The position numbers were made by a program, and so were the translations under genes. This document shows, in pieces, positions 43,097 through 59,518 of a DNA stretch of 64,000 nt. A model generated the notes under the pieces. That model ran no database searches. It saw only the letters and a list, made by a program, of their open reading frames with translations, and was not told the origin of the DNA. Origin of the DNA: Alphaproteobacteria bacterium. Lineage in GTDB: Bacteria; Pseudomonadota; Alphaproteobacteria; GCA-2731375. Where the stretch lies: positions 42,627 through 106,626 of the forward strand of contig CBDDBZ010000022.1 in NCBI GenBank assembly GCA_965225945.1, in the 5' to 3' direction. The first letter of the stretch is position 1; every line of letters starts with the position of its first letter.

Positions 43097-45450
43097 ATGG
43101 AGCCGCCCGAATCCAGCGATAAGAACGGCCCGCCGAAGCAGGAGCCGAAGCTTCGCCTCAGGGCCAGGAACATGGGCCAGACGCCGCCCGCCGCCGCCGA
43201 GGGCGATGCCGGCGGCGGCGCGACGAAGCCCGAGGTCGCGGCGTCGCCAGACGCGCCGCCCAAGGGAAATGGCCAGAACGCCGCGCCGGAACCGGGTGGG
43301 AGTTGCCGAGCTCGGCGCTCAAGTCCGAGGCGAACGATCCGTTGCTCGGATGCCTGGTGGCGGTAACCAAGCACTTCGGCCGTCCGAGCACGCCGCAATC
43401 GCTGATCGGCGGCATGCCGCTGGAGGGCAACCGGCTGACGCCGGCCCTCTTCCTGCGTGCCGCCGACAGAGCCGACCTGAGCGCCCGGATCGTCAAACGC
43501 CGCTTGAACGCGCTGCCGAAATACGTGCTGCCGGTGGTCCTGTTGCCGAAGGGGCGGACCGCCTGCGTCCTCTTCAGGCGGGTCGGCCAGGACAAGGCGG
43601 AGGTCCTCTTTCCCGAAACCGGGGACGGCAGCGAGACCATGGATCTCGACGTGCTGGCCGCCAGCTATGACGGCCACGCCATCTTCCTGCGGCCCCGCTA
43701 TCACTATAGCCAGGTGCAACGCGAGGTGCTGCTGGGCCGCGGCCGCTCCTGGTTTTGGGGCACGCTCGCCCGCTTCTGGAAGACCTATTGCGGCGTCATG
43801 CTCGCCGCCGCCTTCGTCAACCTTCTGGCCCTAGCCTCGCCCCTCTTCGTGATGAACGTCTATGACAGGGTGGTGCCGAACCAGGCGAAGGAGACCTTGA
43901 CGGTACTGGTCATCGGCATCGGCTTGATCTTCGTCTTCGATTTCATGCTCCGATGGCTCAGATCGCATTTCGTCGACAACGCCGGCAAGCGCGCGGACGT
44001 GCTGATGTCGAGCCGTATCTTCAATCACGTGCTCGGCATCACCATGAAATCGCGCCCGGCTTCCTCCGGTGCCTTCGCCAACCAGTTGCGCGATTTCGAG
44101 TGGCTGCGCGAATTCTTCACCTCCGCGACCGTCGTCGCCCTGATCGACTTGCCGTTCCTCGGCCTCTTCATCCTGGTGATCTGGATGATCGCCGGCCCCG
44201 TCGCCTTCATTCCGGCCTTCGCCGTGCCGTTGGTGATCGTGATCGGGTTGATGCTGCAGGTCCCACTGCGCCGCGCGGTCCGCCAAGCGACGGCCGAGGG
44301 CTCGCAGAAGCACGGCGTGATGATCGAGACCATCGCCGCCCTCGACACCGTGAAGAGCCTCGGTGCCGAGGGCCGCATGCAGCGCGAGTGGGAGAAGTAC
44401 GTCGGCACCTCGGCCAACACCGGCATGCGGGTGCGCAACCTCTCCGGCGTCGGCATCAACGTGACCCAACTCATCCAGCATTTCGTCACGGTGGCGGTGG
44501 TGGCATTCGGCGTCTACCGGATTGCCGACGGCGAGATGACGATCGGTGGCCTGATCGCCTGCACGATCCTCACCGGCCGCTGCATGGCGCCGCTCGGCCA
44601 GGTGGCGAGCATCATCTCGCGCCTGCACCAATCGATCGCCGCGCTGAAAACCCTCAATCAGATCATGGCGATGCCGGTCGAGCGGCCGGTCGACGCGCGC
44701 TATCTCTCGCGCGAGCGGCTGGACGGCGGAATCACCTTCGAGAACGTCAGCTTCAGCTATCCCGACAGCGAAGTGCCGGCGCTGCGCGACATTTCGTTCA
44801 AGATCGAGCCCGGGGAGAAGGTTGCGATCATCGGCCCGGTCGGCTCGGGCAAGTCGACGATCTCGCGCCTGTTGATGAAACTCTACGAGGTCGATGGTGG
44901 CGCGGTCCTGGTCGACGGCACCGATATCCGGCAGATCGATCCCACGGACATCCGCAAATCGCTGGGCGTGCTGTTGCAGGACGTGATTTTGTTCCATGCC
45001 AGCGTCCGCGACAACATCGCCATGGCGACACCGCATGCCGACGACGACATGATCTTGCGCGCCGCGCAACTGGCGGGCGTGCATGATTTCATCAGCCAGC
45101 AGCCGCAGGGCTACGACCTGATGGTCGGCGAGCGCGGACAGACCCTCTCCGGTGGGCAACGCCAGTGCATCGCCCTCGCCCGCTCGCTGCTGCCCGATCC
45201 GCCGGTCGTGATATTGGACGAGCCGACGAGCATGATGGACATGCCGGCGGAGAACGCCTTCAAGCGGCGCATGCGCGACTATCTGGCCGGCAAGACCCTG
45301 GTTCTGATCACGCATCGACCCTCGCTTCTGGACCTGGTCGATCGGATCATCGTGATCAGCCGAGGCCGGGTGGTGGCGGACGGGCCGCGCGAGGAGGTGC
45401 TGAAGAAAGGCCGGGCCGACGCGAAGCGCGCGGCCGCGGCGGGCGACTAG
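43097..45450 (+). CDS. Type I secretion ABC transporter, LapB/LssB type (C39-like, TM and ATPase domains); 1-nt frameshift near 43294, probably an error
   Basis: DPLLGCL, LFVMNVYDRVVPN, DLPF, GPVGSGKST, LSGGQRQ, LDEPT; adding one G to ccgggtggg joins MEPPES... to WELPSS... Confidence 0.92.
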
Positions 45451-45464
45451 GGCCGAGGGACCAA

Positions 45465-46790
45465 ATGGCGCGCAGACGGGACTGGCACGACGCCGAGTTC
45501 GCCTCCGAGGTGGAGGGCTCCATGGTGCAGGGTCCGAATCCGGCCCTCAACACCGTCTTCATCCTGATCATCTGTCTCCTCGTCAGCGCCTTCTTCTGGG
45601 CCTACAAGTCGGAGGTCGACGAGGTCACCCGGGGCCAAGGCCGAATTATTCCCTCGTCCAAGACCCAGGTGGTGCAGAACCTCGAGGGCGGCATCCTGAA
45701 GGAGATCTTCGTCAAGGACGGCGATAGAGTCGAAGTCGGCGAGGTGCTGATCAGGATCGACAACACGGGCGCGGCCGCCAGCTACGGCGAGTTGAAGGCA
45801 AACCGCTTCGCGCTGATGGGCCGGGTCACCCGCCTCACGGCGCAGGCCGAGAACAAGCCATTGCGCTTCCCGGCCGAGCTGATGGCCGAGTCGCGGCAGA
45901 TCGCCCTCAACGAGGAGCAACTCTTCAACGCCAGCGAGAGCGCGCTGCAATCGCAGATCTCGATCCTTCGCGTGCAGGCCGATCAACGCAAACAGGAGTT
46001 GGCGGAGCTATTCGGCAAGATCAACAAGCTGAAGGCGAGCCTTGATCTCGCCAACGAGGAGTTGCAACTGACCGAACCGTTGGCGAAAAAGGGGATCGTT
46101 CCGGCGATCGACCTGATCCGCATCAAGCGGCAGGTCGCCGAGCTTTCGGGCGAACACAAGATGACGAAACTCGCGGTACCGAGAGCCCGCTCCGCCGTCA
46201 AGGAAGCCAATCGCCGCATCGAGGAGAAGTTCAATACCCGTCGCACCGAATCCCTGACCGAGCTGAACCAGTCGCGGGCCGAGTTGGCCCAGGTCGAGGA
46301 AACCATCAACGCCGCGCGCGACCGGGTGGTGCGAACCGATGTCGTCTCCCCGGTCAGGGGCATCATCAAGGAGTTGAAGGTGCGGACCGTGGGCGGTGTC
46401 ATCAAGCCCGGCATGGATCTGGTCCAGATCGTGCCGGTCGACGATACCCTGTTGGTCGAGGCCAAGATTCGCCCCTCCGACATCGCCTTCCTCAGCATCG
46501 ATCAAGTGGCGACGGTGAAGCTCACCGCCTATGACTTTTCGATCTATGGCGGGCTCGACGGGCGGCTGGAGCGGATCAGCGCCGATACCATAACTGACGA
46601 TGACGGCGAGGAATTCTATCACGTAATCATCCGCACCGATCAGAACTACTTGGAGCGCGGCGAGAAGAAGCTGCCGATCATCCCGGGCATGGTCGCCAGC
46701 GTCGATGTCCTGACCGGCCGCAAGACCATTCTCGACTATCTCCTGAAGCCCATCCTCAAGACGAGGAACGAGGCGTTGAGCGAGCGGTGA
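45465..46790 (+). CDS. Type I secretion membrane fusion protein (HlyD/LapC)
   Basis: TM helix, VDEVTRGQG, QNLEGGI, SPVRG, GGVIKPG, TAYDFSIYGGL, PGM...TGRKTILDYLLKP. Confidence 0.95.
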   Translation: MARRRDWHDAEFASEVEGSMVQGPNPALNTVFILIICLLVSAFFWAYKSEVDEVTRGQGRIIPSSKTQVVQNLEGGILKEIFVKDGDRVEVGEVLIRIDNTGAAASYGELKANRFALMGRVTRLTAQAENKPLRFPAELMAESRQIALNEEQLFNASESALQSQISILRVQADQRKQELAELFGKINKLKASLDLANEELQLTEPLAKKGIVPAIDLIRIKRQVAELSGEHKMTKLAVPRARSAVKEANRRIEEKFNTRRTESLTELNQSRAELAQVEETINAARDRVVRTDVVSPVRGIIKELKVRTVGGVIKPGMDLVQIVPVDDTLLVEAKIRPSDIAFLSIDQVATVKLTAYDFSIYGGLDGRLERISADTITDDDGEEFYHVIIRTDQNYLERGEKKLPIIPGMVASVDVLTGRKTILDYLLKPILKTRNEALSER

Positions 46791-47509
46791 CGGCGGTGTG
46801 GCCCGGCATTCGACGGCGAACGGCCGGCGCGGCGCTGGCCGCGCTGGTTCTCGGCGTCGGCATTTCCGCCTCGATACCGGCGCGAAGCGGGACGGCGACG
46901 GTGGGGCTGTTCGGCTATCTGGAGTTTCCCTCGCCCGACCTCGCCGCCTTGCCGGTCTGGCTCGACGTATTTTCCCGCCTCGAGACCGACCGCGAGCGCG
47001 CGCGGGCTTGCGACGAGGACGAGGCGGCTTGCGGCGGCACGATCGTCACCGTGTGGCGCGCCAAGGTTCAGGAGCTGGCGAACCTCGACGTCGAGTCGCA
47101 GCTGCAAGAGGTCAATCGCTACGTCAACGGCCTCGCCGAGCTCGGTCCGAGCCCGACGAAGGGCGGGACGGAGCGCTGGACCGCGCCGTTCGAGTTTCTG
47201 GAGAAGGGTGGCGCCGCGGCCGATTTCGCGGTCATGAAATTCGCCACGTTGCGCGATCTCGGCATGGCCAACGAGGCGATGCGCATCGCCGTGGTCTATG
47301 ACGCGCTTCGCAACCGGCGCCACGCCGTGCTCGTGGTCCGCCACGCAAGCGGATTCCGCGTCCTCGACACCTGGAGCGACGCCGTGCTCGATGCGTCGCG
47401 GGTTAAATACTACGTGCCATTCTATTCGGTGAACGAGACGACCCGATGGGCACACGTCGTGAACCGGCCCCTCGGCGCGGCCGGACGCGCTGACGATGAG
47501 GCGAAGTGA
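46787..47509 (+). CDS. LapG-like transglutaminase-like cysteine protease (BTLCP/C93), catalytic Cys replaced by Ala
   Basis: Signal peptide, VNRYVN, W-T-A-P-F-E-F, GAAADFAVMKF where GDCEDYAIAKY is expected, HAVL, VLD, PFYSVNE. Confidence 0.85.
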   Translation: MTAVWPGIRRRTAGAALAALVLGVGISASIPARSGTATVGLFGYLEFPSPDLAALPVWLDVFSRLETDRERARACDEDEAACGGTIVTVWRAKVQELANLDVESQLQEVNRYVNGLAELGPSPTKGGTERWTAPFEFLEKGGAAADFAVMKFATLRDLGMANEAMRIAVVYDALRNRRHAVLVVRHASGFRVLDTWSDAVLDASRVKYYVPFYSVNETTRWAHVVNRPLGAAGRADDEAK

Positions 47510-49602
47510 TCATGTCCGAGTCGAACTCCCCCGCCACCGCGCTCGAGATGTTGAGCTTGCCGGCCCAGCGATCCGGACGCGCCGGCGGCAAGTGGATGCT
47601 CGCCCTGGCGTCGAGCCTGGTCCTGTCCGTCCTTTGCGTCGGCATCATCGTCCTGGATTACTCGGTCCGCGACGAGGAAGCGAGCCTGCTGGGGAGCACG
47701 AGCGATCGCCTGCAGGTCTCGGCGACGGGCCGCGCCGAGGTGCTGTCGGAATGGCTGAAGGGCCGGCTCGCGCTGGCGGAGCCGATTTCCGAGAGCGATC
47801 TTTTTCTGCTGTTCGCGGCGGAGGTCGACCTGGCGGGCCCCGGATCGGTGGCGGCGGGGCCATTGGGCGATCAACTGGCCTATATGCAGGCGAGCCTGGC
47901 CGCCTTCCAGCGCCAGGCCGGTCTGCTCGGCGCCTATCTGGCGAACCGGGACGGCGTGGTCTACGCCGCTGGCCCCGATGCACCGAGCCTGGTGGAGAGA
48001 CAGCGCGAAGCGGTCAAGGCGATGTTCCCCGAGGGCCGAGCGACCATCCTTCCGCTACGCGAAAGCTCGGACGGCTTGGTGCTCGATCTGCTGGTGCCGC
48101 TGCACCCGCCGCAGAGCGTTTCGGCGGCGGACGCCAAGCGGACCGTCGGCGTGCTGGTGATGACGCTGCTCGCAGAGCGCCGGATCAAGAACGCGATGGC
48201 ACCGAGTTCGCTGGCCAATCAGGGCGAGGTCGCCCACCTGTTGCAACTGTCCCAGGGACGCCACCTGGCGATCCGTCCGGGTGAAAATCCGGCGTTGGCG
48301 CCGACCACGCTCGAGGCGGGTGACAAACCCAGGGCCGTCCACTTCGACGAGCGCGCGGGCATCGACGGCCGGCCGGAGTGGCTGTCGGTCGGCGTCGTGG
48401 TCTCCGGGGCGCCTTGGGTGGTGCTGGAGGAGATCGCCAAATCACGAGCGCTGGAGCCGCTGGGCGGCCATCGCCTGTTCGGCGGGCTGATCGTCGTGTT
48501 GTCGACGATCGGATTCGCGGCGGCGGCGCTCGCCTTCTGGTGGCGCCAGGGCAGCGAGACCAATCGGGCGATGGCCCGGCAATATCACGAGCTGGCCGGC
48601 CGTCTGCAGACCCAGCGGCAATTGCTCGACTCGATCAACGCCTCGATCCAGGAACACATCACGGTCAAGGACGCGGACGCGAAGTACATCTACGCCAACC
48701 CGGCCTTCGCGCGGGTGGTGGGGCTGCCACTCGACTCCTTGATCGGGTTGACCGATCGCGCGCTCTTCCAGTCCGAAGAGGCCGAGCAACTGGCCGCCGA
48801 GGATGCCGAGATCATCGCCGGCGGCGAGGTGGCGAGCCAGCTCGTCTCCATCGACGTGGCCGGCGTCGAGCGCCAGTTCCAACTCTCGAAGGGGCCGTTC
48901 CTGGACGACGAGGGACGTCGCATGGGCGTCGTCTCGGTGGCCCGCGATATCACCGAGGTCCTGGAGGCCCAACGCCTGCGCGAGACCGCGGTGATGAACA
49001 CGATCCACGCCCTCTCCAACACCATCGAAGCGGTCGACCCCTATCTCTCCGGGCATTCGCGCAAGCTCGAGCGCGTCGCCAGCGGCATCGGTCGCGTTCT
49101 CGGCCTCTCCGATCCGGAAATCGCGACCCTGGAGATCGCCGCCAACCTGTCGCAGATCGGCAAGCTTTCGGTGCCGGCGGAGATCCTGACCAAATCGGGA
49201 CGCCTGACGGAAGCGGAAAAGGCCGAGATCCAGGACCATATCCGCCATGCCGACCGCATCCTGGGCGATTTGGAATTCGGCTTGCCCGTACGCGAGGTGA
49301 TGCTGCAGATGCATGAGCGGCTGGACGGCAGCGGCTATCCGCTCGGCCTCGCAGGCGATGCCATCGACATCTCGGGCCGAATCCTCGGCGTCGCCGACGT
49401 CTTCGTTGCCCGCACCAACCCCCGTTCCTATCGCGACGGCGCGCGCTCGGCCGACATCCTCGAAATCCTGACCAAGAACCAGAATCGCTACGACATCCGA
49501 GTGATCGAGGCGCTGACCAGCTTCCTGGCGGGCGACGAGGGCGCCGCCATCGCGCCGGACGGTACCCAGCCCTCGGAGGCGGCATCGCCGGAGCCCGAGT
49601 AG
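47506..49602 (+). CDS. Membrane protein: TM / periplasmic domain / TM / PAS / degenerate HD-GYP
   Basis: Two TM segments, PAS (KDADAKYIYANPAF...RDITE), DPYLSGHS, LSQIGK instead of LHDIGK, HERLDGSGYP, ADVF. Confidence 0.88.
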   Translation: MIMSESNSPATALEMLSLPAQRSGRAGGKWMLALASSLVLSVLCVGIIVLDYSVRDEEASLLGSTSDRLQVSATGRAEVLSEWLKGRLALAEPISESDLFLLFAAEVDLAGPGSVAAGPLGDQLAYMQASLAAFQRQAGLLGAYLANRDGVVYAAGPDAPSLVERQREAVKAMFPEGRATILPLRESSDGLVLDLLVPLHPPQSVSAADAKRTVGVLVMTLLAERRIKNAMAPSSLANQGEVAHLLQLSQGRHLAIRPGENPALAPTTLEAGDKPRAVHFDERAGIDGRPEWLSVGVVVSGAPWVVLEEIAKSRALEPLGGHRLFGGLIVVLSTIGFAAAALAFWWRQGSETNRAMARQYHELAGRLQTQRQLLDSINASIQEHITVKDADAKYIYANPAFARVVGLPLDSLIGLTDRALFQSEEAEQLAAEDAEIIAGGEVASQLVSIDVAGVERQFQLSKGPFLDDEGRRMGVVSVARDITEVLEAQRLRETAVMNTIHALSNTIEAVDPYLSGHSRKLERVASGIGRVLGLSDPEIATLEIAANLSQIGKLSVPAEILTKSGRLTEAEKAEIQDHIRHADRILGDLEFGLPVREVMLQMHERLDGSGYPLGLAGDAIDISGRILGVADVFVARTNPRSYRDGARSADILEILTKNQNRYDIRVIEALTSFLAGDEGAAIAPDGTQPSEAASPEPE

Positions 49603-49639: not shown

Positions 49640-50869
49640 GTGTCGATGATCGCGCGCGTGACCGGCCTGTCGGCGCGCGCGCAGGCGCCGATGTTCCTGG
49701 TCGGCATCGGCCATGGCGGCACCCATGTGGTGACCGCGACCTTCTACGTCCTGCTGCCGTTCATCCAGGTCGAACTGGGCCTGAGCTATTTCGAGACCGG
49801 CTTGCTGGCGACGATCTTTCACGCCGCCGCCTTCACCGCCAACTTGGCGAGCGGTCTCGCCGTCGACATGAGCGGCCGGCGAGTCGCCTTCCAGATCACC
49901 GCGCTGATGGCGGGGGGGCTGGGCCTGGTGGGCTTCGGCCACGCGGCGGACTTCACCACGCTGGCGATCCTGATCGCGCTCATCGGGGCGGCGAACAACC
50001 TTTGGCATCCGGCGGCGATCTCCTACATCTCCAACCGATTTCCGAAGAACCGGGGTTACGCGCTGTCGATCCACGCGCTCGGCGCCAACCTCGGAGACGC
50101 GGCGGCGCCGCTGCTGGCCGGCATGTTGATGATCGGGCTGACCTGGCGGGCGACCGCGGTGATCTCGGCACTGCCCTCGCTGCTGCTGGCGTTGCTGCTG
50201 CTGGCCCTGCTCAAGCCGACCGGCACGCGCGGACGGGAGAGCGCGGGCATGAGCACCCGGGACTACCTCGCGGGTCTCCGCCGAGTGGTCACCACGCCCT
50301 CGGTCCTGCTGCTTTGCTGTCTCGGCGGATTCCGCAACCTCGCGCAGAGTGGGATTCGCACCTTCCTGCCGCTCTACCTGATTCAGGTGATGGCGATGGG
50401 GCCGTTCCTGTTCGGCCTGACTCTCTTCAGCCTGCAGATGGGCGGCATCGTCGCCTCGCCCGTCGCCGGCATCTGGTCCGACAGGATCGGCCGCCGTCCC
50501 GTGCTGCTGGCCGGCCTCGGCGCCGCCACGGTGGCGATCGTGGTGCTGACGCTGATCGGCGATCCGGTCATGTTCATCGTCGGCGTCTCGGTGCTGGGCT
50601 TCGCCCTCTTCGCCGTGCGCCCGGTGCTGCAGGGCTGGATGATGGACCTGACGCCGAGCGCTCTCGGCGGTTCGGCGACGAGCTTGATGTTCGGCGTGCA
50701 GGCGCTGTTTTCGGTCATGGCGCCGGCGATCGGCGGCCTGATCGCCGACAGCCATGGACTCCTGGTGGTGTTCTATTGCCTGGCCGGCTCCATGTGCATC
50801 GCCAACCTGCTCGGCTATCTGCTGCCGAAAGACGCGCCGACCCGCGCCCGAGCCGGCGCCGGGGATTGA
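49640..50869 (+). CDS. MFS transporter (Fsr-like)
   Basis: About 12 hydrophobic segments, GLAVDMSGRR, WHPAA, GIWSDRIGRR. Confidence 0.9.
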   Translation: MSMIARVTGLSARAQAPMFLVGIGHGGTHVVTATFYVLLPFIQVELGLSYFETGLLATIFHAAAFTANLASGLAVDMSGRRVAFQITALMAGGLGLVGFGHAADFTTLAILIALIGAANNLWHPAAISYISNRFPKNRGYALSIHALGANLGDAAAPLLAGMLMIGLTWRATAVISALPSLLLALLLLALLKPTGTRGRESAGMSTRDYLAGLRRVVTTPSVLLLCCLGGFRNLAQSGIRTFLPLYLIQVMAMGPFLFGLTLFSLQMGGIVASPVAGIWSDRIGRRPVLLAGLGAATVAIVVLTLIGDPVMFIVGVSVLGFALFAVRPVLQGWMMDLTPSALGGSATSLMFGVQALFSVMAPAIGGLIADSHGLLVVFYCLAGSMCIANLLGYLLPKDAPTRARAGAGD

Positions 50870-51130
50870 GGCCGCCCGATGGGTGACTCCCCTGTCCCCA
50901 CCCCCATCGAGGGACGATCCCTGAAGGTGGATCCGTTCTCGGGGAGGCGGACCACGACCTTCATGCACGGCTGCGTCCGGCACCGACATGACTGGCGACG
51001 TGGCCGAAGACGACCCTCGACGAATGCACTGGTCGTGAACGGTGTTTGTCGTATACCTTCGGAGTCAAATTCCAGGTCATCTGAATGTCGGCTAAATGAT
51101 CTATCTGGCTGGAGACTAGACGTTGTCTAA

Positions 51131-51720
51131 GAGGCTGACTGAAAAAGGGTTGAAGGGAATCAGTGACTTGTGGGTTCTTTGTTGTGGCTAAGCAGCAAAG
51201 GGGGCACAAGATACGGACCGCGACCACGCGCAAGAAGTCTGCCCGGGACGGCACTCGGTTTGCTAGCGATATGACGGACGAGGAGTGGGGGTTGGTCGAA
51301 CCGCTGCTACCCTCGCCGAGATCGACCGGCCGTCACCGAACGACGGATTTGCGTGAGGTGGTGAACGCGCTGCTCTACGTCGCCGAGACCGGTTGCCGGT
51401 GGCGGATGCTGCCCGAGGAGTTTCCGCCCTCTTCAACGGTTCGGGGTTATTTCTACCGCTGGCGCGACGAGGGGCTATTGGCCCGCATCAACGAACACCT
51501 GGTCATGCCGGCGCCTCTGGCGGCAGACCGCGCGGCCTCTCCCTCGACCGATGGCGAGGTCTCTACCTCGGCCGACCGCGAGGCCGCTTCCTCGGCAGAC
51601 AGCGAGGCCTCTCCCTCGGCAGACAGCGAGGCCTCTCCCTCGGCCGGCGTGATCGACACCCCCTCGGTGAAACCCAGGGAAAGCGGTGGTCCGCGTGGCC
51701 ATGACGCGGGCAACAAGAAA
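51131..51720 (+). mobile_element. Left-end remnant of an IS5-family (IS1031/IS427-like) element, fused in frame to the downstream gene
   Basis: taa|gaggctgactgaaaaag end-like sequence; RFASDMTDEEW..EPLLP...DLREVVNALLY..TGCRWRMLP.EFPP.STV.GYF.RW...EASPSAGVIDT.SVK..ESGGPRG.DAG.K; no right end seen. Confidence 0.85.
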
Positions 51721-53925
51721 AATCTGGTGGTCTATGTGGCCGACAAGGAAGGCGAGACCTTCGAGGGACGCATCATCGTCGCCCGCAATCAGCGAATATC
51801 CGATTTTCTGAACGCGGAGAACGCCTTCGTCCCCATCGAGTTGCATGACGGGACGATCCATCTGCTCGGTCGGCGCGCGATCAGCCGCGTGGCGCCGCGA
51901 GAGGACGACGTCGGCGCGCCGGCCCGCGGCTCCTACGACCTCTCGGGACAAGCTTTCAAGCTGACCAAGCGGAAGTCCGCCGTCTCGGTGCTCACCAATG
52001 ACGGCGAGGTGTTCGAGGGTCATTTCTTCGTCACCGGCGATCAGCGACTATCCGAGCTGCTGAACAGGGAAAGCGTCTTCTTCCCCTTCGAATTCCTCGA
52101 CGGAAAAATTCATCTGATCCATCGGAGCGTGATCAGCCGCGAGATACCACGAGAAGAGGACGGTGGCGCGCCGACCGAAGGCGCCTACTACGTCTTGGGA
52201 CAAACTTACAAGCTGACCAAGCGAAAATCCGCCGTCTCGGTGGTCGCCGAGGACGGCCAGATCCTGGAGGGAAATTTCTTCGTCACCGGCGATCAGCGAC
52301 TATCCGATTTGCTGAACGGAAGGAACGCCTTCGTCCCCTTCGAAATTCATGGCGCTACAATCCATCTGCTCGCTCGGAGCGCGATCAGCCGCGTGGTGCC
52401 GCGAGAGGACGACAGTGGCGCGTCGACCCACGTTTACCAAGCACAAGTGCCTTTCAAGCAGCCGAAGCGGAAGACCGCCGTCTCGCTGGTCACCAAGGAC
52501 GGCGAATTTTTCGAGGGACATATCTTCGTCGCCCGCGATCAGCGAGCCTCTGATGTGCTGAACGATGGCAGCCTCTTCGTCCCCTTCGAATTCCTCGACG
52601 GAAAAATTCATCTGATCCATCGCAGTACGATCAGCCGCGTGGTACCACGTGAGGAGGAAGGTGGCGCGTCGGAAGGCGTCTACTTCGCACAAGAAACTTT
52701 TAGTCAGTCGAAGCGGAAGTCCCCCATATTGGTGGTCGCCAAGGACGACGAGGCCTTCGAGGGACATTTCTCCGTCGGCGGGACCGAGCGAATTTCCGAT
52801 CTGCTGAACGCGGAGAGCGAGTTCGTTCCCTTCGAACTCCTCGACGGCACGATCCATCTGCTCGCTCGCAGCGCGATCCGCCGCGTGGTGCCGCGAAAGG
52901 ACGACGGTGGCGAGTCGGGAGGCTCCTACTTCGCACAAGCATCTTTCAAGCAGCCGAAACGGAGGTTCCCCGCCGCGGTGATCACCAAGGACGACGAGGT
53001 CTTCGAGGGACACTTCTTCGTCCCCGGGCGTCAGCGATTATCTCAGGTTCTGAAAGTAGAGAACGCCTTCGTGCCCTTCGAACTTCTCGACGGTACGATC
53101 CAGCTGCTCAATCGGAGCACGATCAACCGTGTGGTCCCGCGAGAGGACGAGGACGAGGACGAGGACGAACCTTCGGCCGAATTCGTTCGCGATGTCTTCA
53201 GGGGATCGGCGCGGGAAGGTGACTTGGTGATGGAAGGTGCCGTCGAAGATATCACCGTCGACGATCCGGCCACGCTCGCCGAGGCCGCCACGGATGCCGA
53301 CCTCGAAGGTCGAACCGGCCCTGCTCGAGGTCGTTCCAGACTTCATGATCCGATCGGGTGGGCCGGGACGCAGTGGGATCGAACCAGGGATCGAACCAGT
53401 GGACCAGAAATCGTGGCGCTGGCGGGCGCGACGGTGCTTCTGCTGATCGTCGCGATAATAGCGTCGACGATGTGGATCGGAGATGGCGAGCGGGGCGATG
53501 TTCTTCCCGAATACCAGAACGGCATGGCGGCGCTTGCAAGTGCCGATTACGAAACGGCGCGCGGTGTCTTTCGGCCCTTGGCGGAACAGGGTGTCGTCAG
53601 GGCGCAGGTCCAGCTCGCTCTCATGCACGAAAATGGCTACGGCGTGCCGCAAGATTACGTTGAAGCCCGCAATTGGTATCTAAAGGCCGCCGCCGAGGGC
53701 GATGTCCAGGGCCAATTGGCGCTCGGGCGCATCTATTTCATGGGCCTCGGGGTTTCGCAGGACCTGGTCCGGGCATACATGTGGTTCATCCTCGCGGCGG
53801 AAAAGGGCGATGCCTCGGCGATGAGATACCGTAACGACGCCCGGGCCGTGATGACCGGTCCCGAGATCGGCGAGGCCGAGCGCAGGGTGCGCGAATGGCG
53901 CGAGAGACACCAGGCCTCCGAGTGA
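51163..53925 (+). CDS. Fusion protein: IS5 transposase N-terminal (HTH) part + six Sm/Hfq-like repeats + TM + Sel1 repeats
   Basis: Uninterrupted 920-codon frame (start could be GTG 51163 or ATG 51271); six 82-84-aa repeats; TM IVALAGATVLLLIVAIIASTMWI; AQVQLALMHENGYGVPQDY and GQLALGRIYFMGLGVSQD. Confidence 0.85.
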   Translation: MTCGFFVVAKQQRGHKIRTATTRKKSARDGTRFASDMTDEEWGLVEPLLPSPRSTGRHRTTDLREVVNALLYVAETGCRWRMLPEEFPPSSTVRGYFYRWRDEGLLARINEHLVMPAPLAADRAASPSTDGEVSTSADREAASSADSEASPSADSEASPSAGVIDTPSVKPRESGGPRGHDAGNKKNLVVYVADKEGETFEGRIIVARNQRISDFLNAENAFVPIELHDGTIHLLGRRAISRVAPREDDVGAPARGSYDLSGQAFKLTKRKSAVSVLTNDGEVFEGHFFVTGDQRLSELLNRESVFFPFEFLDGKIHLIHRSVISREIPREEDGGAPTEGAYYVLGQTYKLTKRKSAVSVVAEDGQILEGNFFVTGDQRLSDLLNGRNAFVPFEIHGATIHLLARSAISRVVPREDDSGASTHVYQAQVPFKQPKRKTAVSLVTKDGEFFEGHIFVARDQRASDVLNDGSLFVPFEFLDGKIHLIHRSTISRVVPREEEGGASEGVYFAQETFSQSKRKSPILVVAKDDEAFEGHFSVGGTERISDLLNAESEFVPFELLDGTIHLLARSAIRRVVPRKDDGGESGGSYFAQASFKQPKRRFPAAVITKDDEVFEGHFFVPGRQRLSQVLKVENAFVPFELLDGTIQLLNRSTINRVVPREDEDEDEDEPSAEFVRDVFRGSAREGDLVMEGAVEDITVDDPATLAEAATDADLEGRTGPARGRSRLHDPIGWAGTQWDRTRDRTSGPEIVALAGATVLLLIVAIIASTMWIGDGERGDVLPEYQNGMAALASADYETARGVFRPLAEQGVVRAQVQLALMHENGYGVPQDYVEARNWYLKAAAEGDVQGQLALGRIYFMGLGVSQDLVRAYMWFILAAEKGDASAMRYRNDARAVMTGPEIGEAERRVREWRERHQASE
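51523..51642 (+). repeat. Five 24-bp repeats encoding ADxEASPS
   Basis: gcagacagcgaggcctctccctcg twice exactly plus three diverged units. Confidence 0.9.
51721..53143 (+). repeat. Six tandem domain repeats, period 246-252 bp
   Basis: KR(K/R) anchors at 51967, 52219, 52465, 52711 and 52957; consensus VSVxTxDGExFEGHFFVxxxQRxSDxLNxxxxFVPFExxDGxIHLxxRSAISRVVPRE. Confidence 0.95.
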
Positions 53926-54235
53926 AGGCGGCGCCGGCCCGCTCGTCGGCTCGATGGCGCGCGGCCCCGCCGCGTGGGCCCTCGCCCGTCAGGGGCCGCC
54001 CGCTCGGTGCGCGGGAGGTAGGGAGGGGCTTTTGAGCGGACCCTTCCAAGGGGTCATATCCGACATTCCCCAGATAGGCCCCGGTTCTGAGTGTCTGAGT
54101 AGACATTCGAGTTTTGGATGGCAATCTGGAACTTGATGAGCGACACTTATGACGCTTTCTTAGCGTTCGGTATCCAAGCTCTAGGGGCGCGACGGGACCG
54201 AGAGTCCAACACACTCTCGACCGGCGCCTTTATCG

Positions 54236-55666
54236 TCAGTCTACAAGAACGTACTCCAGGCCGAGGGGGATGTTGACGTAGCCGCTGGCGCAGTCGTCGG
54301 CGGCGGGGCCGACCATGGCATTTCCGGCCAATTTGACTGTATCGGAAATAATTTGGATGCCACAGGGCCCATCTATGGTGGAGCCTCCAACGATCTCCAC
54401 CAGTTGAGTCGGCATATAGACCGCGCCGTCCAGGATGACCGGGTCGCTGCCGGCAAGTTTCCACCAGAAGTCTCCCGGAGTCGATGCAGGATCACCGAAG
54501 AACAAAACACCGGCGTAATAATCCGGGGATGGATAAGCCATGGGTGGATCATATTGCGGGATTGGTGCCGAGAGGGTTATGCTGTTGCTGCTCCCTGTGA
54601 TGTGAATATTTCCATAGTTGCCGATGCCATCGTCTGTGTTGTAAAACATGACTCCACCTGGCATGTTTGTGTACGTATTGGAGTTGCCCGCTATCGACAG
54701 TCCTCCGCCCCTGAGGACATATATCCCAGGGGCAAATTCGACAGTCATACTATTCCCGCCGAAACTGAGTCCTCCACAATAAGTGCCGGGCGTCATCATC
54801 ACCATCGCGTAATTCGTGTTGTAAATCAGATCGGTATGAGCAGCATCACAGACAGGGACGACAGGCGGCGGCTGCATGTATGCGAGTGGGTCGATTGGCA
54901 TATAATCGCAACCCTCAGTGATGTCTGGCGGGTCCGGATACCATGACACCCCTCCGCTTTCTTTGATACCGCCCGCGATGCAGACTTCCCCCACAGCAAT
55001 ATCGGCGGTCCCCGTTGTCGTTATGCCCTCCGGATCGTCCGACCAGGCCGCGATGCCACATTTGCCGAGGTCCGTGTTGTTGGTGCCAGTTATCTGGATG
55101 GCGTTCTTCTCGGTTTTATTGAGAGAGAGAATGCATGCCGTACCATCGCCGGGGCCGGCGTAGGCGACGGCTTTCGCGGTCACGTCCGTCTGCCTGAAAC
55201 CGATCACGGCCGCGAAAAACAGGCCAAGCGGATTACCATTCACCTGAGCACGACGCGCGATCACTTTGACCGCGTCGGCTTTTTCGCCGGTTGGAATGTC
55301 GCTCAGGGCATAGAAAGTCCTGGTGTCCGGATCCCAATGCCCTGGCTTGACATCCGAGGTCGCGACGATGTTGCCATGGTTCGCGAGCGACATGTTCTTT
55401 TGAGCGTAGGTACGTGCCTCGCCGACGATGGTGCTCTGTTCCGTGGTGCCGAGGGTGCCGGTGTTCGTCGGAATCACCACCACACCCGCCAAGGCGGACG
55501 CGTCCGCCGCCCCTTGCAATTGCGTGCGGGTCCAGTAGAGATGACCGCCGTCGATCGCCAGCGCGGCAAATCCGATCAAAACCACCGACAGAAGCGCAAC
55601 CATGATGGCGACCGCGCCCTGCCGGTCGTCCCGGAACGAGGTCAGGAATAGCCAACATCGTTCCAT
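54236..55666 (-). CDS. TadG-like Flp pilus assembly/tip protein
   Basis: FRDDRQG/AVAIMVALLSVVLIGFAALAIDGG...LQGAADASALAG, TadG C-terminal motif (VKVIARR...LFFA), Gly-rich beta domain (PGTYCGG, PGIYV). Confidence 0.88.
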   Translation of the reverse strand: MERCWLFLTSFRDDRQGAVAIMVALLSVVLIGFAALAIDGGHLYWTRTQLQGAADASALAGVVVIPTNTGTLGTTEQSTIVGEARTYAQKNMSLANHGNIVATSDVKPGHWDPDTRTFYALSDIPTGEKADAVKVIARRAQVNGNPLGLFFAAVIGFRQTDVTAKAVAYAGPGDGTACILSLNKTEKNAIQITGTNNTDLGKCGIAAWSDDPEGITTTGTADIAVGEVCIAGGIKESGGVSWYPDPPDITEGCDYMPIDPLAYMQPPPVVPVCDAAHTDLIYNTNYAMVMMTPGTYCGGLSFGGNSMTVEFAPGIYVLRGGGLSIAGNSNTYTNMPGGVMFYNTDDGIGNYGNIHITGSSNSITLSAPIPQYDPPMAYPSPDYYAGVLFFGDPASTPGDFWWKLAGSDPVILDGAVYMPTQLVEIVGGSTIDGPCGIQIISDTVKLAGNAMVGPAADDCASGYVNIPLGLEYVLVD

Positions 55667-57929: not shown

Positions 57930-59264
57930 TCATGGCGAGGTTTCGCCGACCTCCCAAGGCCTGTCACCGGCCCACTTGCGCCAGCGCCCGAGATCGGCGG
58001 CGGTCAGGGCGACGCGGAGCCGTAGGGCGGTCTCGTCGGCCTCGCGGGCCACGACCTCGCCGTGGGCATGCAACCAGGCGAGCGCGGCGCCGTCGTCCGG
58101 GGCCAAGCACACGTCGAGCAGTTGCCGCGCCGGCGCCAGCATCTGGTCCAAGCGGGCGAGAAGCCGCTCGCACGCCTCGCCGCTCAACGCCGAAAGGGCC
58201 ACCCGATCCGGCCGATCGCCGTCGCTCGCGCCCACCTCGGCCCGGCCCGAGGGATCCAGCAGGTCTATCTTGTTCCAGACCTCGAGCAGCGGGGGTCCGT
58301 CCGCGCCGAGCAGGTCGAGTTCGCCCAGCACCGTCTCGACGTCGAGACGCTGGGCCTCGCGGTCCGGGTGGGCGATGTCGCGGACGTGCAGGATGACGCT
58401 CGCCTCCCGCAATTCCTCGAGGGTCGCGCGGAAGGCCACCACCAGATGGGTCGGCAGCTCGGCGACGAAGCCGACCGTGTCGGCCAAGAGGATCCGCCCG
58501 GCGCGCGGCAGATCGATGCCGCGCAGGCTCGGGTCGAGGGTGGCGAAGAGCTGATCCTCGGCGAAAACCGCGGCCCGGCTCAGCCGATTGAAGAGGGTCG
58601 ACTTGCCCGCGTTGGTATAGCCCACCAGCGCCACCACCGGATGGGGCGCCTGGCGCCGGCGGCGGCGCTGCAACTCGCGCGTGCGTCGAACGCCGTCGAG
58701 CCGCTTGGCGATCGACTCGATCCGCCGGTCGAGCATCCGCCGGTCAGCCTCCAATTGGGTTTCACCCGGCCCGCCGACGGCGCCGAGACCACCGCGCTGG
58801 CGCTCCAGATGAGTCCAGGTCCGGACCAGCCGGCCGCGCTGGTAGGTGAGCTGGGCGAGATCGACTTGGAGCCGGCCCTCGCGGCTTCGCGCCCGGGCGC
58901 CGAAGATCTCCAGGATCAGGCCTGTCCGGTCGATCACCTTGCAATTGAAGGCGGTTTCGAGATTTCGTTGCTGCACGGGACCGAGCGGCGCGTTCACCAC
59001 CACCAGTTCCGCCTCGAGCTCGCGCACGGCATCGGCGAGCGCCACCACCTTGCCGGTGCCCAGCAGCGTCTTGGCCCGCGCGCGCGGGAGCGGCACCACT
59101 TCGCCATGGACGACCTCGAGGTCGATGGCGCGCGCGAGGCCCACCGCCTCTTCCAGCATCGCCTCCGGGGTCCGCGCCGCGGCGCGGCCGACATCGGGAT
59201 GGATGACGAGGCAGCGCCCGCTGGCGCCCGGCCCGCCCTCGGCGGCGTGAAACCGTTCGCTCAC
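57930..59264 (-). CDS. hflX: GTPase HflX
   Basis: [51 protein letters not shown]; GTG overlaps the hfq stop. Confidence 0.97.
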
Positions 59265-59518
59265 GCCGACTCGGTCACCTCCTCGGTCTGCGCGGGGTCG
59301 TAAAGCTGTACCGGTGTCGCCGGCATGACCGTCGAAATCGCGTGCTTGTAGACCAACTGGATGTGGGCGTCGCGCTTCAACAGCACGCAAAAGTTGTCGA
59401 AGCCGCTGATCGCGCCTTGCAACTTGACGCCGTTTACCAGGAACACCGTGACGGGAGTGTGGTTTTTGCGGACATGGTTGAGAAACACGTCCTGGACGTT
59501 GTGCGAGCGTTCTGACAT
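59261..59518 (-). CDS. hfq: RNA chaperone Hfq
   Basis: [24 protein letters not shown]...FDNF...[13 protein letters not shown]. Confidence 0.99.

Follow-up and report, generated by a model that had tools for sequence, protein, structure and literature searches.

Hfq is the bacterial Sm protein and works as a homohexameric ring; Sm/Hfq proteins in general are textbook rings of separate subunits. The locus described here lies in a 64,000-nucleotide stretch of alphaproteobacterial DNA (the window) and encodes six tandem units, proposed in a first-pass annotation to be Sm/Hfq-like, in one membrane protein. It raises the question of whether such units could form a ring within a single polypeptide chain. 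No description of a membrane architecture with six tandem DUF6812 domains, the Pfam family to which the units belong, was found in print.

The listing of open reading frames and its translation give one open frame of 920 amino acids at 51163..53925 on the forward strand. The annotation had placed the protein at 51721-53925; the end is correct, while 51721 falls at residue 187 of the longer frame, and the 186 residues ahead of it are transposase-derived. The frame is a chimera, consisting of a transposase N-terminus, six DUF6812 domains, a linker, a transmembrane (TM) helix and a Sel1 module. The first-pass annotation had named misassembly of the array as a concern. The six-fold array recurs on contig C31 of this genome, as a second copy, and in a genome of the same genus (G002); in run X1, 30 of 30 bins are covered by Logan contigs, for which neither joints nor indels are reported. 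The features are as follows.

51123..51131, forward: what is left of the six-repeat gene's native start (TTG TCT AAG), from base-level alignment with the uninterrupted C31 copy
51132..51714, forward: 583-bp insert, the left end and 5' part of an IS5-type element (blastn against the C31 copy)
51163..53925, forward: chimeric open frame with a GTG start; an alternative ATG at 51271 would give 884 aa (ORF listing, translation, Pfam)
51271..51489, forward: DUF4096 domain (IS4/IS5 transposase N-terminal), aa 37-109 (Pfam PF13340, E 4.2e-28, 97.9 bits, profile positions 1-75 of 76)
51521..51646, forward: 24-bp tandem repeat, 5.2 copies, coding for SADSEASP-like units (TRF)
51724..51975, forward: DUF6812 repeat 1, aa 188-271 (envelopes from an hmmsearch with the repeat profile; in the 486-aa AF2 model, strands at 2-59)
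51976..52227, forward: DUF6812 repeat 2, aa 272-355 (repeat alignment, hmmsearch, AF2)
52228..52473, forward: DUF6812 repeat 3, aa 356-437 (same evidence as repeat 2)
52474..52719, forward: DUF6812 repeat 4, aa 438-519 (same evidence)
52720..52965, forward: DUF6812 repeat 5, aa 520-601 (same evidence)
52966..53157, forward: DUF6812 repeat 6, aa 602-665 (same evidence)
53158..53409, forward: acidic low-complexity linker, aa 666-749, opening with an EDEDEDEDE run after repeat 6 (translation)
53410..53478, forward: single TM helix, aa 750-772 (Kyte-Doolittle 19-aa maximum 2.78)
53503..53922, forward: C-terminal Sel1/TPR-like module with two Pfam Sel1 stretches, the best at aa 813-847 (Pfam Sel1, E 2e-20)

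The acidic linker, single TM helix and Sel1 repeats agree with what had been read from the translation at first pass. A 6-bp tandem repeat (GAGGAC x4.3, TRF) is found at 53143-53168, and the linker turns arginine-rich just ahead of the membrane segment. No second hydrophobic segment above 1.5 was found in the 920-aa frame by Kyte-Doolittle analysis. The Sel1 assignment (PF08238) scores 72.9 bits against a cut-off of 30.7. There are three K+R in the 15-aa flank on the N-terminal side of the TM helix and one on the C-terminal side, by which count the N-in topology is the likelier one, in line with the cytoplasmic repeats originally proposed; the Sel1 module is probably periplasmic. The native protein would thus have three parts: a large cytoplasmic part with six DUF6812 domains, an acidic linker of about 85 aa with one TM helix, and a small periplasmic Sel1 module.

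Comparison with the C31 copy explains the chimeric start. Window positions 51096-51131 and 51715-53248 adjoin each other in the C31 copy (blastn of the window against L010), whose gene starts TTG CCT AAG GAA AAT CTG (MPKENL). In the window the TTG remnant, preceded by GGAGA at 51111-51115, is separated from its gene, and its frame meets a stop after 22 codons. The insert breaks off immediately ahead of the DDE domain and continues in frame into native codon 4, so that residues 1-186 represent the shortened N-terminus of an IS5-type transposase, attached three codons inside the native gene. In BLASTP this part matches a 273-aa IS5-like transposase of G002 over residues 21-137 of the latter (44% identity, E 2e-39), up to GHDAGNK/GFDAGKK, and the 24-bp repeat corresponds to a 32-aa insertion relative to it. 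The N-terminal DUF4096 expected of the IS5 family is present; there is no Pfam match to a DDE catalytic domain in the 920-aa frame, the alignment stopping at residue 137 of 273, and the insert does not have two terminal inverted repeats, its right end joining the native gene directly. Judged by these sequence comparisons, the IS5-type part is a truncated relic and not a transposase. The left junction is bridged with 0 differences by 440-nt contigs of runs X1, X3 and X6, from three studies. An IS5-type element probably landed three codons into the gene and was later truncated, in which case the protein could be made in this genome only with 186 transposase-derived residues fused in frame ahead of it, or by starting internally. 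For experiments the window chimera is a poorer choice than a single-copy homologue or the uninterrupted form, as in P0003, which starts like the C31 copy.

The insertion also raises the alternative that the locus in this genome is an inactivated, decaying gene, and that its open frame yields no working protein, whatever the intact ancestor did. The insertion would have cut the gene from its start, which now runs into a stop, and the in-frame fusion would be a one-in-three accident of a later deletion. A search for sigma-70-like promoters in 50800-54300 found 0, with 0.6 expected. The value of dN/dS between the three copies is 0.76-0.88, similar in repeats, linker and Sel1 (1.17 for the linker against G002), and the other copies are themselves damaged: the G002 copy has an in-frame stop in repeat 5 and an independent IS5-like element at its start, in the same place as in the window, and the C31 copy has its TM region deleted and an in-frame stop ahead of Sel1. 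As deposited (P0003), the C31 copy would put Sel1 in the cytoplasm, a misfit with a role in transmembrane coupling. Against decay, the 734 native codons in the window are free of stops and frameshifts. From 296 random substitutions 7.3-8.8 stops are expected and one is seen (P <= 0.007), which suggests that the open frame has been under selection; P0165, close to the G002 copy, has Arg where the latter has its stop. In addition, the fusion is in frame, AAGGGA lies four bases upstream of the GTG at 51163, and the occurrence of the same left junction in three runs from three studies indicates that this is not a private lesion of one assembly. An RNA-library run has contigs over 51080-51543, 52755-52956 and 53336-53491, which could be DNA carry-over. 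Overall, we consider it rather unlikely that the gene is dead. The first-pass annotation had passed over the transposase chimera, the lesions and dN/dS of about 0.8 in the genus copies, and the single-copy DUF6812-TM-Sel1 forms found elsewhere.

The repeats themselves are well defined. TRF reports a 246-bp period at 51744-53150 (5.7 copies, 74% matches, score 1247), and the FEG motif occurs at residues 200, 284, 368, 450, 532 and 614, a spacing of 84, 84, 82, 82 and 82, as expected for the six repeats of 82-84 aa that were initially proposed. The six units have a mean column identity of 68% and 16 invariant columns. A resemblance to DUF6812 had been suggested at first pass, and is borne out by Pfam (PF20660), which finds six stretches at 95.8 bits against a gathering cut-off of 27.1; 85 of the 86 aligned family domains match DUF6812 at E <= 1. 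Repeats at the same position are 87-100% identical to those of C31 and 71-85% to those of G002, compared to 47-77% for different positions. The segments of roughly 25 aa (YFAQ..KRK), originally described as aromatic/basic linkers, are better described from the alignments as a conserved N-terminal extension of the DUF6812 domain itself: single-domain proteins begin MYYAS..PKRK. Repeat 1 is without this YYA..KRK extension.

The first-pass annotation compared the repeats by eye with a genuine Hfq about 6 kb away. This protein is encoded at 59264..59518 on the reverse strand, 5.3 kb past the gene end (85 aa, Pfam Hfq E 2e-32, 111 bits). An 86-sequence DUF6812 alignment was compared with a 30-sequence Hfq alignment using hhalign, giving a probability of 77.4%, E 2e-5 and a score of 31.8 over 55 columns, equivalent to Hfq residues 15-69, the whole Sm core with b1 to b5 colinear. 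In 200 column shuffles of the Hfq alignment the mean score was 10.7 (sd 2.5, max 21.4) and none reached 31.8, which is about 8 sd above these controls; the reversed alignment scored 10.8. The profile similarity over the Sm core is therefore statistically supported, and the alignments made by eye (beta1-G-beta2, and the Sm2-like IHLLARSAISRVVP against Hfq) are returned in the same register. A profile search of 177,635 distinct PDB sequences gave six matches at E<10, five of them Hfq (E 0.31-1.5) and colinear in Sm1 and Sm2. After DUF6812 itself (85), the sub-threshold Pfam matches most often met with in the 86 members were Hfq_1 (5), DUF903 (3) and Hfq (2), and P0004 matched SM-ATX at 28.1 bits, below the cut-off of 29.8. 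No window repeat reaches the Pfam threshold of any Sm-clan family. The Hfq HMM (PF17209) matches neither the 920-aa protein nor a single repeat at E <= 1-10, and matches only 2/86 family members at E <= 1.

AlphaFold2 was used to predict the structure of a single unit (aa 423-505, window 52429-52677, in the region of repeat 4). The model has a pLDDT of 87.3 and contains five strands and one short helix, in the order b1-b2-short helix-b3-b4-3/10 turn-b5, with the 3/10 turn at the position of Hfq YKHA. Foldseek ranks YgdR/DUF903 and Hfq from several species highest (TM by target 0.57-0.74, E 3e-3 to 4e-2), with no match for the single unit at E <= 1e-3 (best 2.8e-3). VIA-align was run on 48,161 chains; judging from the entry titles, Hfq, Sm, LSm, SmAP, RimP, Gemin or 'Sm-like' proteins account for about 39 of the 50 rows listed; the best Z is 5.9 and none is >= 8, and such values can reflect a common arrangement. 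The N-terminal helix that is a defining Sm feature is not predicted with confidence before b1 in the single-unit model, where residues 1-12 are coil (block pLDDT 67), and the six-repeat model has only 4-residue helical turns in some linkers, at low confidence. The neighbours of the model, mostly Hfq, LSm and DUF903, favour the proposed Sm fold, which falls short in its Z of 5-6 and its missing helix.

These shortfalls are what would be expected if DUF6812 were unrelated to Sm/Hfq, a generic SH3-like small β-barrel that had converged on a similar strand pattern. The VIA-align list also includes the BirA C-terminal domain, a designed SH3 barrel and the PHF19 Tudor domain, and every PDB sequence match has E > 0.3. 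Convergence does not readily account for a profile score so far above the shuffles with all five strands in one colinear alignment, for the predominance of Hfq among the PDB sequence matches and of Sm-type entries among the structural ones, or for the b4-b5 turn at the YKHA position, and we regard it as quite improbable. At domain level the results support a distant relationship of DUF6812 to the Sm/Hfq barrel, or a structural analogy with it. Each unit would be a divergent five-stranded barrel of this type, similar in size to Hfq, with a 12-residue insertion (the R..DLLN helix) between b2 and b3 that Hfq does not have, and whose R..D..N is near-invariant across the family. The basic YYA..KRK extension would occupy the position of the helix 1 end and the basic rim patch in Hfq. 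The DUF6812-Hfq alignment retains the basic patch before b1, and the 'K/R-x-x-I' of the b4-b5 turn falls at Hfq YKHAIS, with K/R at the Lys of YKHA; these residues are ascribed functional roles in Hfq. The His of YKH, presumably part of the proximal pocket, is not kept.

We turn to the arrangement of the six units. The AlphaFold2 model of the 486-aa six-repeat region has a pLDDT of 80.6 and a pTM of 0.70. The pTM is the model's own confidence, and by our estimate independent 60-aa domains in a chain of this length would give about 0.2, so the prediction argues against beads on a string. Foldseek found no global PDB match for the whole model (TM ~0.1). The best overall explanation, to which we give a little less than an even chance, is an inner-membrane protein with six-fold-amplified Sm/Hfq-like units and a probable pseudo-hexameric assembly, carrying the IS5-type fusion in this genome. 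Single-copy forms may oligomerise via the Sm-like domain, and six covalently linked, position-specific units could come together as a single fixed assembly, for which a pseudo-hexameric ring beneath the membrane is the likeliest form. Such an assembly might couple a periplasmic protein-protein (or cell-wall) contact of Sel1 to a cytoplasmic ligand, with RNA and a hexameric partner (for instance a CpaF-like ATPase) as candidates. A single-chain ring would have one TM helix and one Sel1 module, and a hexamer of the single-copy form six of each, so the two are not equivalent.

The units could instead be Sm-like barrels that do not close into a ring, forming a row of ligand-binding modules that are independent or packed in pairs, comparable to tandem Tudor or KOW domains, and raising avidity for a cytoplasmic ligand beside the membrane. 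The only multi-domain Foldseek matches are of this kind (the Spt5 KOW chain 7xn7_W, 53BP1 tandem Tudor and Spindlin, all at TM ~0.1), and the linkers of 22-25 aa are all below pLDDT 50. TRF also detects a period of 492 bp, and repeats 2 and 4 are more alike than any other pair (71%); both point to an array that grew two repeats at a time and not to selection for six as such. A pTM of 0.70 is nevertheless hard to obtain with about 100 disordered residues in 486 unless all six domains are mutually placed, and Hfq proteins, the closest relatives in sequence, are obligate rings. Exactly six units are present in all three full-length genomic copies read (window, C31 and G002), and the database proteins P0002 and P0004, in which the gene is called from inside repeat 1, still have six stretches each. 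A copy-number survey had been proposed as a check on the hexamer; in the best 150 of 250 matches there is one domain in 117 proteins, two in 29, three in two, six in one and eight in one spurious partial match. Two-domain members are thus common, as an array would allow, and 4-, 5- and 7-copy forms are absent among these 150. The series 1, 2, 3, 6 is weak support for a hexamer, because one and two dominate most domain families. We think an open array unlikely, and less likely than the pseudo-hexameric assembly. The fullest form of the latter is more doubtful still: a natural single-chain pseudo-hexameric Sm/Hfq-like ring under the inner membrane, evolved from a self-assembling one-domain DUF6812-TM-Sel1 protein and linking a periplasmic Sel1 contact to a six-fold cytoplasmic partner (membrane-held RNA or a hexameric CpaF-type secretion ATPase), with DUF6812 as a previously unrecognised bacterial branch of the Sm superfamily.

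DUF6812 is present in 34 of 301 genomes sampled across the class, about a tenth. One DUF6812 is combined with two Sel1 repeats in P0023, P0030, P0034, P0037 and P0077, and inspection by eye shows a TM stretch in P0023 and P0030; three DUF6812 domains occur together with a TM helix in P0016; and a split form is found at L022, where a DUF6812 gene lies 15 nt from a secreted 9-Sel1 protein. From these architectures the ancestral form is, as far as can be judged, one DUF6812 with TM and Sel1, and the six-repeat gene probably arose inside one genus by six-fold amplification of this more widespread protein.

Several known systems share parts of this design. The window protein differs from Hfq in having its six units in one membrane-anchored chain fused to Sel1. 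Covalently linked Sm units occur in tandem two-domain Hfq proteins such as a 211-aa protein encoded by G169, which unlike the window protein have two genuine Pfam Hfq units and are soluble, without TM or Sel1; an early phyletic survey of Hfq reportedly noted duplicated Hfq proteins. The Sm, LSm1-7 and LSm2-8 heteroheptamers resemble it in having diverged, position-specific paralogous units, and LSm and Sm chains are among the structural neighbours of the DUF6812 unit, but eukaryotic Sm/LSm proteins come from seven separate genes, belong to nuclear/cytoplasmic RNA machinery and carry canonical Sm1/Sm2 motifs. YgdR/YgdI, the DUF903 lipoproteins, give the best single-unit Foldseek matches (3fif, 2rb6, 2ra2 and 2rd1; TM by target 0.71-0.74), and three of the 86 family members match Pfam DUF903 weakly; they are small periplasmic single-domain lipoproteins of unknown function with no known ring. 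An Sm domain within a membrane channel, MscS, is mentioned in PMC3710371. The MscS middle β domain is likewise an Sm-like barrel around a symmetry axis on the cytoplasmic side of an inner-membrane protein, although MscS is a homoheptameric channel with one such domain per chain, three TM helices and no Sel1, and it is absent from the listed Foldseek and VIA-align rows. The layout of cytoplasmic domain, one TM helix and periplasmic Sel1/TPR module is that of PodJ, and the Sel1 part alone matches Sel1 regions of proteins named 'localization factor PodJL' at 33-34% identity. PodJ differs in its coiled-coil cytoplasmic part and in carrying the peptidoglycan-binding domain PF01471, for which Pfam finds no match in the 920-aa protein. 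We rejected a PodJ-type localisation factor, with PF01471 absent and the similarity confined to the Sel1 part.

The step from a homomeric to a position-specific heteromeric ring is normally reconstructed only from paralogous genes. If the pseudo-hexameric ring is correct, one polypeptide with six diverged Sm-like units, together with extant one-, two- and three-unit relatives, would display this transition within a single family, and would provide a ring whose positions can be mutated one at a time. The analysis also gives an uncharacterised Pfam family a likely fold and a likely ancestry, and suggests Sel1 proteins and CpaF-like ATPases as testable partners. In two unrelated lineages, single-domain DUF6812 genes have a CpaF-type secretion ATPase gene directly upstream; the six-repeat gene itself adjoins a TadG-like pilus gene, which is convergent with it and not co-transcribed.

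The gene studied (window positions 51163 to 53925, forward strand) forms one uninterrupted reading frame of 920 codons. Its Pfam domains are as follows.

Pfam domains of the 920-aa protein
aa 37-109: DUF4096, N-terminal domain of IS4/IS5 transposases, E 4e-28
Six stretches: DUF6812 (PF20660), 95.8 bits against a cut-off of 27.1
Two repeats: Sel1, E 2e-20

According to Tandem Repeats Finder, positions 51744-53150 consist of 5.7 copies of a 246-bp unit, with 74% matches. In the protein the six unit starts are spaced by 84, 84, 82, 82 and 82 residues, and the mean column identity across the units is 68%. Repeat 6 is followed by the run EDEDEDEDE and by a linker of low complexity, and the Sel1 module comes after the sole hydrophobic segment of the protein, residues 750-772 (Kyte-Doolittle 2.78). 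Pfam, Tandem Repeats Finder and hydrophobicity therefore confirm the layout described in the first-pass annotation, and the six Pfam stretches show that the resemblance to DUF6812, which it also noted, was correct. The protein has no N-terminal signal sequence, and the 15-residue flanks of the hydrophobic helix carry three Lys plus Arg on the N-terminal side against one on the C-terminal side, which by the positive-inside rule makes an N-in, Sel1-out topology the likelier one.

The YFAQ..KRK segment that had been taken as a linker belongs to the DUF6812 domain itself. The pattern YYA/YFAQ...KRK lies ahead of b1 in repeats 2-6, and single-domain proteins begin with the same pattern (MYYAS...PKRK). 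We rejected misassembly as the source of the array, because DNA identity between its repeats is only about 75%, and because the same array recurs in a second gene copy on another contig of this assembly (C31) and in a genome of the same genus (G002). Parts of the window without cover in sequencing runs X3, X6 and X15 carry no evidential weight.

A profile of the six repeats matched 250 proteins at E <= 1e-3 among 1.84 billion representatives. For comparison with Hfq, an alignment of 86 sequences was used, consisting of 81 single-domain members and five units from the window. Its profile gave six matches at E < 10 to all PDB sequences, five of which are Hfq (E 0.31-1.5, colinear over b1-b2 and b4-b5). 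With hhalign, the probability was 35% against the window's own Hfq and 77.4% (E 2e-5, score 31.8) when the target was 30 aligned Hfq proteins drawn from the phylum's genomes. The latter alignment covers 55 columns, equivalent to Hfq 15-69, with one 12-residue insertion on the DUF6812 side, and sets the KRK of the DUF6812 extension against the basic end of Hfq helix 1. As controls, 200 column shuffles of the Hfq alignment scored 10.7 +/- 2.5 (maximum 21.4) and the reversed alignment scored 10.8. Sub-threshold Pfam matches in the 86 family members, after DUF6812, were to Hfq_1 (5/86), DUF903 (three) and Hfq (two), and a protein atlas search returned DUF6812 clusters only. At the level of the domain, the hhalign and PDB matches back the Sm/Hfq likeness that had been noticed by eye, and we consider a distant Sm/Hfq relationship of DUF6812 to be well supported and probable. 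The window repeat is not Hfq proper, because no window repeat reaches a Sm-clan Pfam threshold. DUF6812 differs from Hfq in having an inserted helix, which bears the near-invariant R..D..N of the family; five residues of the unit (G30, R39, D42, N45 and F50) are at least 90% conserved across the 86 sequences.

AlphaFold2 was used to predict the structure of one unit from the 86-row alignment, with a pLDDT of 87.3. The elements of the model are listed here.

Predicted secondary structure of one DUF6812 unit, in order
13-22: b1
27-35: b2
40-44: helix
50-55: b3
60-64: b4
3/10 turn
68-73: b5

Structural comparison of this model, which had been proposed as a check, supports the likeness in part. 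Hfq is among the best Foldseek rows, together with YgdR/DUF903 lipoproteins (TM by target 0.57-0.74), the Hfq rows being from Listeria, Staphylococcus, Bacillus, Aquifex, Caulobacter, Pseudomonas, Thermotoga and Synechocystis. No Foldseek match to the single unit has E <= 1e-3, and unlike Sm/Hfq the unit has no confident N-terminal helix. VIA-align against 48,161 chains gave a best Z of 5.9; no chain reached 8, and the tool grades such a result as middling. Judged by their titles, about 39 of 50 listed entries are Hfq, Sm, LSm, SmAP, Edc3/Scd6 LSm, Gemin6/7, RimP or Sm-like.

The six-repeat region (486 aa) was also modelled with AlphaFold2, giving a pLDDT of 80.6 and a pTM of 0.70. Every repeat is folded like the single unit, and all linkers have pLDDT below 50. 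In this model the six domains are placed confidently relative to each other, because six independent 60-residue domains would give a pTM of about 0.2 (our own estimate from the pTM formula); the alignment used is deep over repeat 3 only, which may limit the model. Compared as a whole with the PDB by Foldseek, the model has no meaningful global match (TM about 0.1). A complex prediction of repeats 1-3 with repeats 4-6 from the same alignment, run without controls, gave a score of 0.05 and a mark of 0.32, and speaks neither for nor against a ring. On these models we put closure of the array into a ring at close to an even chance, if anything slightly less. Domain order, repeat number, the IS fusion and the family relationships are shown by the data. 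In the mechanism envisaged beyond these, DUF6812 units would self-associate in the manner of Sm domains, and six units would form one fixed assembly, probably a ring. Such a ring might bind RNA or a six-fold partner, and might be positioned or regulated via the periplasmic Sel1 module.

A survey of copy number had been suggested as a further indication of a hexamer. Domains were counted in the best 150 of the 250 matches.

DUF6812 domains per protein, best 150 of 250 matches
One domain: 117 proteins
Two domains: 29 proteins
Three domains: 2 proteins (P0016, P0130)
Six domains: 1 protein (P0004)
Eight domains: 1 protein (P0019, spurious)

The eight-copy form was rejected as spurious: the eight stretches of P0019 (3041 aa) cover only profile positions 6-37, within an adhesin-like 208-aa repeat. 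The survey thus finds a series of 1, 2, 3 and 6, which is compatible with an assembly of six units, though by itself it supports a hexamer weakly. Five proteins of 320-362 aa (P0023, P0030, P0034, P0037 and P0077) pair a single DUF6812 with two Sel1 repeats, and P0023 and P0030 have a TM stretch, judged by eye; P0016 combines its three domains with a TM. DUF6812 was found in 34 of 301 genomes sampled over the class, mostly once, and the six-fold array in the window's genus only. Given the one-domain DUF6812-TM-Sel1 relatives and the restriction of the array to one genus, the gene is best read as a genus-level six-fold amplification of a more widespread one-domain protein. The array of six is older than the window, C31 and G002 copies and unchanged in number since, because repeats at the same position are 71-100% identical among them, against 47-77% between different positions. 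A search for longer proteins with the 86-sequence alignment returned five, all of the six-repeat group, with a crowding warning, so other multi-copy forms are possible. The six-repeat alignment gave 23 pattern matches on genome contigs, none of which was confirmed.

The window's genome has 17 domain matches in all, and besides the two arrays it holds five further single loci.

Further DUF6812 loci in the window's genome (contig:positions)
C38:335472-335720
C39:684439-684666
C34:369583-369831
C4:10358-10603
C5:39351-39557

Elsewhere in the class most positive genomes have one or two, and one (G187) has eight. PF20660 was above cut-off in Thermus thermophilus, one of 14 control genomes, and therefore reaches past the window's phylum. 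P0018 (283 aa) joins a response-regulator receiver domain to a pair of DUF6812, hinting that DUF6812 may act as an output module in two-component signalling.

The transposase piece at the start of the gene can be explained by comparison with C31, where the gene begins TTG CCT AAG GAA AAT CTG (MPKENLLVYV...), directly ahead of repeat 1. A base-level comparison divides the window as follows.

Window segments compared with C31
50521-51063 and 51096-51131: match to the C31 upstream region
51132-51714: 583-bp insert, behind the third native codon (native TTG at 51123)
51715-53248: match to the C31 gene body, 91.5%

The insert product is 44% identical (E 2e-39) to residues 21-137 of an IS5-like transposase that is complete in G002 (273 aa). 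The insert is a truncated IS relic whose remaining frame is in phase with codon 4 of the native gene, because the transposase alignment ends at GHDAGNK / GFDAGKK, just ahead of the catalytic domain. The transposase-derived part contains a 24-bp unit (SADSEASP-like) in 5.2 copies at 51521-51646, which is absent from the related G002 transposase. The frame from the native start is now stopped after 22 codons. The left junction is real, since it is spanned with 0 differences by contigs of three runs, which come from three studies. The G002 orthologue has a complete IS5-like element at its 5' end (L017 4531-5352), which is an independent hit at the same spot, because it is only 44% identical to the window's and in the opposite orientation. 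IS5-type elements seem to land repeatedly in the first codons of the gene; the window's truncated one lies in the orientation of the gene. A scan of 50800-54300 found no sigma-70-like promoter.

Pairwise dN/dS (Nei-Gojobori) is 0.78 for window and C31, 0.88 for window and G002, and 0.76 for C31 and G002; by region, window against G002, it is 0.84 for the repeats, 1.17 for the linker and 0.83 for TM plus Sel1. The control, a TadG-like neighbour (dS 0.56, omega 0.62), is a poor yardstick because it is fast-evolving and far more diverged. In the G002 copy, an in-frame stop takes the place of the conserved Arg in repeat 5; P0165, a close relative from another source, has Arg there. In the C31 copy the TM region is missing, and an in-frame stop lies ahead of Sel1. 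The frame was held open through most of the divergence, because 296 random substitutions in the gene would be expected to produce 7.3-8.8 stops and one is observed (P <= 0.007). We read the gene as fast-evolving and recently relaxed or strain-variable, rather than long-dead. The chimeric locus in the window may be inactive, a rival reading that we rate as less likely than the main one.

C31 is 99.8% identical to the window over 543 bp upstream (L010 872-1414; MFS 3' end and spacer), and only 91.5% over the gene body (L010 1456-2989). A single duplication does not account for this mosaic; possible causes are recombination, mixed strains in the assembly (contamination 5.58%) and a higher rate of change in the repeats. 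On C31, IS256- and IS110-like fragments lie just upstream of the gene. Contig C36 of the same genome carries a second Hfq match (414159-414350), with a score exactly equal to that of the window hfq, as well as 80-88% identical pieces of the IS fragment; a duplication of the region, or the presence of another strain in the assembly, may account for this.

Sm fusions and MscS are described in PMC3710371, whose passages on tandem, fused or duplicated domains contain no multi-Sm chain. Our literature search found no paper naming DUF6812 or PF20660, which is a catalogued, uncharacterised family, and a phrase search found none on tandem or multiple Sm, LSm or Hfq domains. Within the reach of these searches, a membrane-anchored chain that joins six Sm-like units to Sel1 is undescribed, and its interest would be much higher if a closed ring were demonstrated. 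Covalently linked Hfq units already exist, two per chain: in genome G169, a 211-aa open frame (L059 1234-1869, minus strand) encodes two genuine Hfq domains, one after the other. A two-domain Hfq was reportedly noted in an early survey of Hfq.

Upstream of the gene, on the same strand, are HlyD-like, BTLCP (LapG-like) protease, PAS + HD_5 and MFS genes, and downstream is a convergent gene for a TadG-like pilus protein. The first three lie in a row at 45165-49602, a set which we take to be reminiscent of adhesin-release control systems. A tie to the nearby hfq was dropped, because hfq is 5.3 kb further on, on the other strand, and in its usual neighbourhood with hflX and trkA.

Functional leads come from relatives. 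In genome G184 (L022 2-1800, minus strand) a gene for a 114-aa DUF6812 protein lies 15 nt upstream of a gene for a 480-aa protein with nine Sel1 stretches and a signal-peptide-like start, a split version of the DUF6812-Sel1 fusion. Recurrent fusion or adjacency to Sel1 is to us the best lead, and a link with CpaF-like ATPases the second. Among 32 loci, of which L022 is one, the single-domain DUF6812 gene is divergent from maoC-ribF in eight, and in three (two lineages) it follows a gene for a CpaF-like T2SSE ATPase at a distance of 14 nt or with an overlap of 4 nt. In these pairs (L039 39-1716, 14-nt gap; L041; L042 119-1719, 4-nt overlap) DUF6812 is directly downstream, and the adjacency occurs in two genera of different families.
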